Source: Escherichia coli (lineage in GTDB: Bacteria; Pseudomonadota; Gammaproteobacteria; Enterobacterales; Enterobacteriaceae). From it: a DNA stretch of 64,000 nucleotides. The DNA lies in assembly GCF_044324875.1 (NCBI RefSeq), contig NZ_CP172185.1; one strand, written 5' to 3'. Position numbers and translations under genes: made by a program. Position 1 is the first letter of the stretch. Each line of letters opens with the position of its first letter. Positions 2 to 25,815 of the stretch are shown here, one piece after another. The notes under the pieces were generated by a model that did no database searches, had not been told where the DNA came from, and saw nothing but the letters and a program-made list of their open reading frames with translations.

Positions 2-781
2 GACCGTTTGCTCACTATTATGCAGCGCCTGCGCGACCCGGAAAACGGCTGCCCGTGGGATAAAGAGCAGACATTTGCCACCATTGCGCCTTACACCCTT
101 GAAGAAACCTACGAAGTGCTGGACGCCATCGCCCGTGAAGATTTTGACGATCTTCGCGGTGAACTGGGCGATCTGCTATTCCAGGTGGTGTTTTACGCGC
201 AAATGGCTCAGGAAGAAGGGCGCTTTGACTTTAATGATATTTGCGCTGCTATTAGCGATAAATTAGAGCGTCGCCATCCGCATGTTTTTGCTGACAGTTC
301 TGCCGAAAACAGTAGTGAAGTGCTTACCCGTTGGGAGCAAATCAAAACCGAAGAGCGCGCGCAGAAAGCGCAGCATTCAGCGCTGGACGATATTCCTCGT
401 AGTTTACCGGCTTTAATGCGTGCGCAAAAAATCCAGAAACGTTGCGCCAACGTTGGTTTCGACTGGACGACGCTTGGTCCGGTAGTCGATAAAGTCTACG
501 AAGAGATCGACGAGGTGATGTACGAGGCGCGGCAGGCTGTTATCGACCAGGCTAAACTGGAGGAGGAAATGGGTGACCTGCTGTTTGCCACGGTCAACAT
601 GGCACGCCATTTAGGGACAAAAGCAGAGATTGCACTACAAAAAGCCAATGAAAAATTCGAGCGCCGTTTTCGCGAAGTGGAGCGTATTGTTGCCGCGCGT
701 GGACTGGAAATGACAGGTGTTGACCTCGAAACAATGGAAGAAGTCTGGCAACAGGTAAAACGGCAGGAAATTGATCTCTAA
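2..781 (+). CDS. mazG: Nucleoside triphosphate pyrophosphohydrolase MazG, 5'-truncated by window edge
   Basis: ORF track 8..781; same frame is open back to position 2; product matches the MazG N- and C-terminal EE..E..D halves (LEETYEVLDAIARED, EEIDEVMYEARQ). Confidence 0.9.
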   Translation, partial: DRLLTIMQRLRDPENGCPWDKEQTFATIAPYTLEETYEVLDAIAREDFDDLRGELGDLLFQVVFYAQMAQEEGRFDFNDICAAISDKLERRHPHVFADSSAENSSEVLTRWEQIKTEERAQKAQHSALDDIPRSLPALMRAQKIQKRCANVGFDWTTLGPVVDKVYEEIDEVMYEARQAVIDQAKLEEEMGDLLFATVNMARHLGTKAEIALQKANEKFERRFREVERIVAARGLEMTGVDLETMEEVWQQVKRQEIDL

Positions 782-993
782 GGGAATTACGTGGTCAAGC
801 GCGATTTGTGTCATTTTTTAAATGACAAGCGCTTGATTTGCGTCAAAAACATTTACCCCAAAGGGGCTATTTTCTCACTCCTGATTTCAATAGTGCGCTG
901 GCGAAGAGGAGGGATAATGAAAGTTTGTGGCACAGGTCATGTTCGGGTATACTGCTTTCCCGTCCTGGTTATTCCATCGTCTTTTCAACCTAA

Positions 994-2646
<1,653 letters not shown>

Positions 2647-8845: not shown

Positions 8846-9118
8846 GAGTTCCCCGCGCCAGCGGGGATAAACCGCTTCATCTGTCGGGCTAACTGGACAA
8901 AGAAACGAGTTCCCCGCGCCAGCGGGGATAAACCGTCGGTTTGACATCAAAGAAGCCATCAATCAGGGAGTTCCCCGCGCCAGCGGGGATAAACCGGTCT
9001 GGCCATAGGAACAAAGAAATTTGTCTTTGAGTTCCCCACGTCAGCGGGGATAAACCGGACACAGAGCGCCGCTATAGCGCCTATGCCAAGAGTTCCCCGC
9101 GCCAGCGGGGATAAACCA
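8846..9118 (+). CRISPR. Type I-E CRISPR array, 5 repeats / 4 spacers (29-bp repeat GAGTTCCCCGCGCCAGCGGGGATAAACCG, 32-bp spacers)
   Basis: Repeats start at 8846, 8907, 8968, 9029, 9090 (61-bp period); repeat 4 has two substitutions, repeat 5 ends A instead of G. Confidence 0.97.
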
Positions 9119-9571
9119 CCATATAACCCGTTATCTCTTTCTCAAGTTTTTATATTAGCAGTACTTGTAATAAGCAACATATCCACGTAACACCTCATGT
9201 TCAAAATAGTTCTCCATGCCAGAGAAGTTCACAATTATCGATACAAAAAATTAAATTTAATCAAAGTGTTATTTGTATGATTCTTAAATCGTTAAGAAAT
9301 TTTAATATATTATTTTTTTAATATTAATTAATGCCTGTTAATTTTTTCTTTAGAATAACAGTGTATTTTTTAAGCTTATTATTCATTGATTAAGTAATAA
9401 ATCTGGAAATTTGTCTTTGTTTTGAGGCTAATGAGTGATTTTACATAATCGCCTCTATACGCTGTTGATGAATAGTTCTTATGAATAAAGATATCCAGTT
9501 CATACTTTAAGTGAAAATTGATAAAGTGCGATTCGTATTGTCTTTTATTCTAAAGACATCGAGTGTAGTTA

Positions 9572-9709
9572 ATATTCCTTGTAAAAACAGGGATAAACCG
9601 AACTAGTTAAAGTTTTTATTATGTTCCCTGCATCAGCGGGGATAAACCGGACTTGTTATCATTTTTTAAGTTGTCGAACTTATGTTCCCCGCGTCAGCGG
9701 GGATAACCA
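9572..9709 (+). CRISPR. Degenerate CRISPR remnant (2 recognisable repeats at 9621 and 9682 with one 32-bp spacer, plus a partial repeat ending 9600)
   Basis: ATGTTCCCTGCATCAGCGGGGATAAACCG and ATGTTCCCCGCGTCAGCGGGGATAACC read directly; no convincing leader. Confidence 0.65.
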
Positions 9710-25550: not shown

Positions 25551-25815
25551 AATATCGTACCGCTTAATAAACGTCTCTGTCTGAAAAGATGGGGGCGTTT
25601 TTATTTTGCGAGCAGCATTCCTGATTTTAAACGTGAACGCCGCTGGAAGAATTATCAAGTATAGAATGGCGTTGGGTGCTTGAGGCTGTCTGGCGTTAAG
25701 CATTCGCGAGGTTCCAGATGGACAAAAGCCCCAGGCGATATTTCTATCAACCTGAGGCCAGCGTTCGAACCTAAGCAATTCGAATGTTAGTCTCTTCTTT
25801 GCAGGGAGGCAAGAC

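Follow-up and report, generated by a model that had tools for sequence, protein, structure and literature searches.

A bulged palindrome between mazG and pyrG of Escherichia coli as probable upstream control DNA for pyrG

The spacer between mazG and pyrG of Escherichia coli contains a bulged palindrome that is best read as ordinary promoter-region DNA. Our preferred model, to which we assign a probability of roughly 0.6, is that the palindrome is upstream control DNA for pyrG rather than a self-contained RNA element, and that it belongs to an FNR/IHF module with a class II distal promoter. According to this model the 3′ half of the palindrome would be the upstream edge of a nearly invariant module, in which an IHF core (826-838, minus strand) overlaps an FNR box (833-846), and the 5′ half would be a less conserved partial complement whose symmetry is lineage-specific.

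All positions refer to the 64 kb stretch of E. coli DNA that was analysed (the window). A query of 401 bases over the site matched 5425 of 5426 complete E. coli genomes, with an identity of at least 99% in 5417. The palindrome region is single-copy per genome and carries no annotated feature; a repeated or mobile element was ruled out by the presence of the region once in every genome. The first base of the palindrome is 14 nt past the mazG stop codon, and the pyrG ATG at 1009 is 173 nt beyond position 835. The mazG stop codon and the parts of the palindrome, the latter as identified by repeat search and folding, are the following.

779-781, plus strand: stop codon TAA of mazG (ORF 8-781, annotated as mazG in E. 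coli genomes)
795-802: left outer arm, TCAAGCGC; 16 variants in 46 orthologous spacers, with TCAAGCGC itself in 24 of the 46
803-808: 6-nt bulge, GATTTG (CATTTG in K-12), variable among genera
809-827: inner palindrome, TGTCATTT-TTT-AAATGACA, with an A/T-rich centre
829-836: right outer arm, GCGCTTGA, nearly invariant

The first-pass annotation had given the sequence of 796-835 exactly as we found it, together with the 8-bp inner arm and the 6-nt bulge, but its 7-bp outer arm was one pair short: repeat search gave outer arms of 8 bp (TCAAGCGC/GCGCTTGA, 795-802 and 829-836). The inner arms at 809-816 and 820-827 (TGTCATTT/AAATGACA) are 100% complementary around a 3-nt loop. GATTTG (803-808) in the 5′ half and A828 in the 3′ half do not pair. 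It was also correctly noted that no clean T-run follows, as the sequence 3′ of the palindrome is ATTTGCGTCAAAAAC.

To examine conservation, 80 loci were fetched via MazG, with one genome per species, and their spacers were extracted; the resulting alignment consisted of 46 distinct Enterobacteriaceae versions. The mean column entropies in these 46 spacers were as follows.

Flank after the stop codon: 1.11 bits
Left outer arm: 0.57 bits
Bulge: 0.93 bits
Left inner arm: 0.75 bits
Right inner arm: 0.28 bits
Right outer arm: 0.16 bits
Ten bases after the right outer arm (rest of the FNR box): 0.12 bits
AAACATTT: 0.02 bits
12-nt variable block: 0.83 bits
−10 block CTATTTTCT: 0.08 bits

Conservation among enterobacterial spacers had been named in the first-pass annotation as a check, and conservation was indeed found across the 46 spacers. 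It is strongly asymmetric: the right half of the palindrome and the DNA downstream are almost invariant, whereas the left half is not. Pairing alone would not constrain one arm so much more than the other. A828, which is unpaired, is invariant in the alignment. The left outer arm varies less than the flanks (0.57 versus 1.11 bits), and the outer helix survives despite a diverged interior in Mangrovibacter, Cedecea and one Buttiauxella. Both of these features are unaccounted for by the interpretation of the palindrome as upstream control DNA.

The constrained half of the palindrome runs into a series of protein-binding and promoter-like motifs, which are listed here from 5′ to 3′.

826-838, minus strand: IHF core AATCAAGCGCTTG, an exact match to the consensus WATCAANNNNTTR, with its specified positions invariant in 46 spacers
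833-846: FNR box TTGATTTGCGTCAA, matching TTGAT-N4-ATCAA at 9 of 10 positions and the lone TTGATNNNNRTCAA match in 64 kb
847-854: block AAACATTT, identical in 45 of 46 spacers
855-866: variable spacer with a 4-bp CCCC/GGGG mini-hairpin; 27 variants in 46 spacers, with pairing kept in 66% of cells
868-873, plus strand: −10-like TATTTT, assigned to a putative FNR-type distal promoter of pyrG with a predicted start near 880, within a block (GCTATTTTC) that is invariant in 46 spacers

Judged by these motif matches, the IHF core and an FNR half-site overlap in the right arm of the palindrome. The right outer arm shares TTGA with the FNR box, and its variation (GCGA, GCTC, GCGG or GCGT) lies entirely within GCGC, which occupies the NNNN of the IHF core. 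Variation of the FNR box across genera is confined to its N4 (TTGC, TTAC or TTGA). The WATCAANNNNTTR pattern has 7 matches in the window, with 2.5 expected, and a T5 run is located 6 nt 5′ of the IHF core on the same strand.

Published ChIP data show that FNR occupies the box at 833-846 in vivo under anaerobic conditions. Table S6 of Myers 2013 (PMC3688515) places TTGACGCAAATCAA, as a predicted FNR site, at 2907851 ('pyrG') under an FNR ChIP-seq peak, with a PatSer score of 14.73 (ln p −13.29), and the FNR box upstream of pyrG is in this sense already known from a genome-scale table. TTGACGCAAATCAA is the reverse complement of 833-846 and occurs once in the spacer, and 2907851 corresponds to window position 846. 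The peak summit at 2907811, called by three peak callers and ChIP-chip (Table S5; Myers 2013, PMC3688515), corresponds to approximately 880-886. The pyrG peak has a PatSer value, while removed peaks, including those also present in the Δfnr control, carry N/A (Myers 2013, PMC3688515). Table S5 of the same study gives a weak motif within the peak (PatSer −5.52), unlike the −13.29 of Table S6. Our own literature search on a mazG terminator, pyrG promoter names and FNR regulation of pyrG found nothing past the tables of Myers 2013.

The FNR site also overlaps IHF ChIP-chip enrichment (Table S6; Myers 2013, PMC3688515), at a resolution insufficient to assign the bound motif. Like known IHF sites, which combine a WATCAANNNNTTR core with a flanking A/T tract, the pyrG site has an exact core, invariant specified positions, the T5 run and overlapping enrichment; unlike them, it is a site at which ChIP-chip does not pin binding to this particular motif. 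The suggestion in the first-pass annotation that the palindrome could be a protein binding site thus held up, in that the right outer arm overlaps an FNR box with published in vivo occupancy as well as the IHF core motif.

Several other binding sites were considered and rejected. A second, upstream FNR site ending in (A/G)TCAA at 794-798 reaches 8/10 in a few Enterobacter-type spacers and about 4/10 in E. coli. The right half of a CRP site at TGTGA-N6 would read AAATG. A RutR half-site, TGGTCAA at 792-798, is a half-site alone and is E. coli-specific. In addition, we observed a direct repeat (GATTTGTGTCA and GATTTGCGTCA, at 803-813 and 835-845, separated by 32 nt) that together with the preceding CAAGCGC makes up a pair of similar units. 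One of these, 826-845, is the FNR/IHF module, and the other, 796-813, may be a degenerate duplicate.

Class II FNR-activated promoters of E. coli carry TTGAT-N4-ATCAA centred near −41.5, with yfiD at −40.5. The arrangement upstream of pyrG is similar: TATTTT lies 21 nt 3′ of the FNR box, close to the TAnnnT about 22 nt after the box that class II spacing calls for, and from this layout we propose a distal pyrG promoter of the class II FNR type, with a putative start near 880. All Enterobacteriaceae spacers, 9 of 11 Erwiniaceae and five Serratia, Rahnella or Ewingella loci had an FNR-like box with TAnnnT 21-22 nt past it. Among the Erwiniaceae, TAnnnT was at +22 in 8 of 11 and TATTTT was at +21 in one more. 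In Erwinia and Pantoea the box (for example, GTGACGTGCATCAA) and the pyrG ATG are 165-175 nt apart, with TAATCT, TACTCT, TAACAT, TAGTCT, TACGCT or TAAGGT 22 nt past the box, and Serratia, Rahnella and Ewingella have TTGATCGGnnAYAA, then 22 nt, then TAAGCT. In the latter three genera the box is 15-46 nt past the mazG stop codon and 331-333 nt before the pyrG ATG, so that the leader would be much longer than that of E. coli. The sequence between box and −10 is unrelated among the Enterobacteriaceae, Erwiniaceae and Serratia-like groups, and Pectobacterium and Yersinia were found to be without the box-to-−10 layout. Retention of this spacing in three families argues that the 'silent' FNR peak may mark a real promoter. 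The IHF core and the hairpin are restricted to the Enterobacteriaceae.

A consensus promoter scan of 600-1200 found no promoter; the scan needs both hexamers and is therefore blind to an activator-dependent promoter with a poor −35. The invariant block at 847-854 could border the IHF site, serve as the poor −35 of the putative distal promoter, or do both. We also tried a σ32 reading of this region (CTTGATT...CCCCAAAG) and rejected it, as its spacer is 17 nt and its CCCC falls within the variable block. The spacer of the σ32 consensus is 13-15 nt.

The pyrG site is thus like class II FNR promoters in having a box with in vivo occupancy and a 9-of-10 match to the consensus, a poor −35 with a −10-like hexamer 21-22 nt past the box, and a spacing conserved in three Enterobacterales families. 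It is unlike them in that its distal start is a predicted one, in that pyrG has a strong constitutive proximal promoter 80 nt downstream and in that an IHF core overlaps the box. A further difference concerns expression. Table S9 of Myers 2013 (PMC3688515), which also gives three known pyrG start sites, reports an FNR peak at pyrG and no change in its expression in the Δfnr strain in glucose minimal medium. An FNR-dependent change of the adjacent operon was thus not seen in that one condition. Activation of pyrG by FNR is unproven because pyrG expression was unchanged in Δfnr in this medium.

Our preferred model can be stated in terms of these elements. The centre of the FNR box would be at approximately −40.5/−41.5 relative to the predicted start near 880, which is the geometry of a class II activator. 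Under anaerobic conditions FNR bound to the box would contact RNA polymerase and fire the distal pyrG promoter, while IHF on the core that overlaps the box would compete with FNR or introduce a bend in the DNA. The inner palindrome (809-827) may act as UP-like or bendable DNA 5′ of the FNR box. The leader of the distal transcript would include a conserved upstream ORF whose stop codon overlaps the start codon of pyrG.

Two further features downstream are relevant to this last point.

925-959, plus strand: proximal pyrG promoter as read from the sequence, with TTGTGG (925-930), a 17-nt spacer, TATACT (948-953) and a start at about 959; conserved
917-1012, plus strand: conserved 31-codon upstream ORF with the SD sequence AGGAGG at 907-912; its stop codon TGA (1010-1012) overlaps the pyrG ATG (ATGA)

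A strong σ70 ChIP-seq peak at 2907750 (approximately window position 947) is on the proximal promoter, indicating that any distal promoter is minor under the conditions studied. The AGGAGG sequence is 4 bases 5′ of the upstream ORF start codon (917). The reading frame is maintained in more than 30 distinct Enterobacteriaceae spacers, even through a 3-nt indel, and is shifted in Buttiauxella and Cedecea. The ORF is unannotated in the RefSeq K-12 record, and the pyrG row of supplementary file 3 of Adams 2021 (PMC7815308) is marked 'uORF'. The primer used in that study to clone the pyrG 5′ UTR begins at CCCGTC (Adams 2021, PMC7815308). Since the upstream ORF begins 42 nt 5′ of the proximal start (about 959), an upstream transcript is needed for its expression, and its position and conservation hint at transcription from further upstream. 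An abundant Rho-associated 3′ end (Rho score about 2.6) maps approximately 36 nt inside the pyrG ORF (window position about 1044), and expression of a pyrG fusion increased more than 2-fold in a rho mutant (Adams 2021, PMC7815308). These results point to control of pyrG by premature termination, independent of the palindrome.

As RNA, the 796-835 segment had an MFE of −14.3 kcal/mol, with z-scores of −3.6 on the plus strand and −5.05 on the minus strand, and the longer segment 790-850 folded at −20 kcal/mol (z −3.4); none of 200 shuffles matched the native fold. RNA folding had been proposed as a check in the first-pass annotation, and the structure is beyond chance, with z of about −3.4 to −5. 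The palindrome at 795-836 folded at −16.2 kcal/mol with a GCGC base, and it therefore has the stable G+C-rich stem-loop of an intrinsic terminator. It was among the top 2.5% when compared with every 42-nt window of the 64 kb, and among the top 0.5% when the comparison was limited to GC-matched windows; however, 136 other places on the plus strand fold equally well or better. We conclude that the palindrome is real and non-random to a moderate degree. Among the most stable hairpins in the window were the repeated GTTCCCCGCGCCAGCGGGGATAAACCG units at about 8848-9700, which look like an E. coli-type CRISPR array.

As an RNA, the palindrome might be a hairpin in mazG mRNA, either a weak non-canonical terminator or a 3′ stem-loop that halts exonucleolytic trimming after Rho-dependent termination, and it would then set the 3′ end of relA-mazEFG and insulate pyrG. 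We consider this explanation unlikely. It agrees with the start of the hairpin 14 nt past the mazG stop codon and with its stability (−16 to −20 kcal/mol, z −3.4 to −4.3), and with the potential to form it in 29 of 46 orthologous spacers, in which z was below −2 when each was folded separately; the outer helix even reaches 10 bp in Klebsiella and Enterobacter. The common polymorphisms seen in E. coli, at 792 and 803, both fall on positions that are unpaired in the palindrome. Nevertheless, several Citrobacter, Kluyvera, Siccibacter and Buttiauxella no longer have the hairpin, and most Erwiniaceae are without an equivalent 5′ of the FNR-like box.

Apart from the stem-loop, the properties expected of a terminator were lacking. 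A U-rich tract directly 3′ of the stem is absent (the tail is TTTGCGTCAAAAACA), and a simple consensus terminator scan of 600-1200 did not report the palindrome. We also computed a d'Aubenton-Carafa-type discriminant, d, with modern energies. The value for the palindrome, −32.7, was the best of the entire spacer, compared with +43 for the eno terminator, +20.5 for the site at 25572-25597 and +5.3 for the pyrG-eno hairpin, which served as hairpin-plus-T-run controls from the same window. The statement in the first-pass annotation that this is not a textbook terminator was therefore borne out by both the scan and the discriminant. Like intrinsic terminators, the palindrome is a stem-loop with a G+C-rich base shortly past a stop codon; unlike them, it has an asymmetric internal loop, an A/U-rich upper stem, no U-tract, a discriminant far below those of three controls in the window and no mapped 3′ end.

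The last of these points comes from published Term-seq data. The 3′ ends reported are internal to pyrG (2909630 or 2909628), the next being internal to mazF (2910995) or in rlmD (2913710) (Adams 2021, PMC7815308). In two sample lists from the supplement of that study no 3′ end was present in the mazG-pyrG spacer, that is, between 2909630 and 2910995, and the mazF-internal end was detected in one of the two lists (Adams 2021, PMC7815308).

Two other terminator-like elements in the spacer were examined and rejected. The simple scan called GCCCCTTTGGGGT followed by AAATGTTTTT terminator-like on the minus strand (867-855), in the CCCC/GGGG mini-hairpin at 855-866, whose bases on the plus strand make up the variable spacer of the putative distal promoter. 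This mini-hairpin was terminator-like on the minus strand only, its discriminant was poor on both strands (−50.8 for the minus-strand candidate), and no minus-strand gene ends there. In Enterobacter cloacae (2282-2297, approximately window 789-804), the left arm can alternatively form a TTGCG-ATCAAG-CGCAA hairpin followed by a T-rich run, which the scan flagged as terminator-like. The corresponding small hairpin at 790-803 with the U-rich 804-819 was discarded as the true mazG terminator, as it has only 3-4 bp in E. coli (d = −59) and is not maintained in Salmonella, Kluyvera and Mangrovibacter.

Comparison of the 46 spacers gave no sign of a conserved RNA structure. Paired cells amounted to 79.5%, versus 78.2% in shuffled alignments, and two-sided changes occurred in 5 pairs, versus 4.6 expected. 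The central inner pair was unpaired in 40 of 46 spacers. RNAalifold on these spacers did not predict the palindrome and returned only the 5-bp dyad TTGAT....GTCAA of the FNR box, with a covariation of 0. An Rfam scan at a permissive E-value gave a single match, RF01080, at chance level (15.7 bits against a gathering score of 39, E = 7.1). Where the right outer arm varied (12 spacers), the pair was lost in 10 and kept via G-U in 2, and none showed compensation on both sides. A hairpin under selection in mazG mRNA could still account for conservation of the left arm without covariation, because selection for pairing opposite a right arm frozen by protein sites would leave none; the 12 spacers in which the right arm did vary argue against it. 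Thus, the processing or attenuation structure that the first-pass annotation had envisaged in a mazG-pyrG read-through transcript found no support, in view of a lack of covariation, no RNAalifold consensus, a central pair broken in 40 of 46 spacers and no 3′ end in the two Term-seq lists. That annotation had weighed its proposal against two outcomes, absence of conservation and absence of mapped transcript ends. No transcript end was found, whereas the sequence proved to be conserved, chiefly in its right half and not for pairing. From these data we conclude that neither a terminator nor a conserved RNA structure is a supported reading of the palindrome.

The symmetry itself varies with lineage. 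The left inner arm is TGTGATTT in 27 of 46 spacers, and most genera have TGTGATTT opposite AAAT(G/A)ACA. Escherichia alone has the C needed for a complete inner stem opposite AAATGACA (a G-to-C change converting TGTGATTT to TGTCATTT). In E. coli strain 8479 (NZ_CP074994.1), the one inspected of six genomes in the 80-90% identity band, the 6-nt bulge is replaced by a single T to give a perfect 16-bp palindrome, CAAGCGCTTGTCATTT-TTT-AAATGACAAGCGCTTG. Perfect symmetry is Escherichia-specific and may have arisen by quasi-palindrome mutation. Template switching at quasi-palindromes in E. coli is reportedly described by the Ripley model and by work from the Lovett laboratory. The pyrG spacer resembles E. 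coli quasi-palindromes in being an imperfect inverted repeat for which a natural allele perfects the symmetry through a single complex event that turns 6 nt into 1 nt. It differs in being a natural polymorphism rather than a reporter assay, so that the mechanism is deduced from the outcome alone. The E. coli symmetry probably reflects TCAA/TTGA half-site motifs, the self-complementary GCGC and such 'perfecting' mutations.

These observations allow for an explanation in which the left half of the palindrome is functionless and its symmetry is a neutral by-product of template-switch mutation beside a constrained operator. The restriction of the stem-perfecting G-to-C change to Escherichia, the conversion of the bulge to one T in a single event in strain 8479, which is the signature of template-switch mutations, and the lack of covariation all fit such an origin. 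We nonetheless regard it as quite unlikely, because across genera the left outer arm varies less than the flanks and the outer helix is retained where the interior has diverged; moreover, the strain 8479 case comes from one of six genomes of 80-90% identity.

It is highly improbable that a dimeric regulator uses the inner palindrome, TGTCA-N9-TGACA, as a symmetric operator. E. coli does have a perfect dyad 5′ of the promoter region, but the symmetry is absent in most genera, which have TGTGA opposite TGACA or TAACA, and the left half-site is less conserved. The spacing also does not match that of CRP, FNR or LexA sites, judging by a comparison of the consensus sequences with the sequence as read.

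In our preferred interpretation of the palindrome as control DNA upstream of pyrG, what is added to the published FNR site is the conserved box-to-−10 spacing across three families and a putative source of transcript for the conserved upstream ORF. A broader evolutionary picture is possible, and we hold it tentatively, at less than even odds. An ancient class II promoter just after mazG would have been kept in the Enterobacteriaceae, Erwiniaceae and Serratia-like genera and would produce an anaerobic long pyrG leader with a translationally coupled upstream ORF, with the palindrome and IHF site adding a layer in the Enterobacteriaceae that gates mazG read-through or FNR access. If it is real, the distal FNR promoter would couple the synthesis of CTP to oxygen status. 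CTP is used directly by the anaerobic ribonucleotide reductase NrdDG, which FNR activates, and this would make such a link physiologically sensible. To our knowledge the regulation of pyrG in E. coli is poorly defined, and work on the putative distal promoter could help fill this gap.
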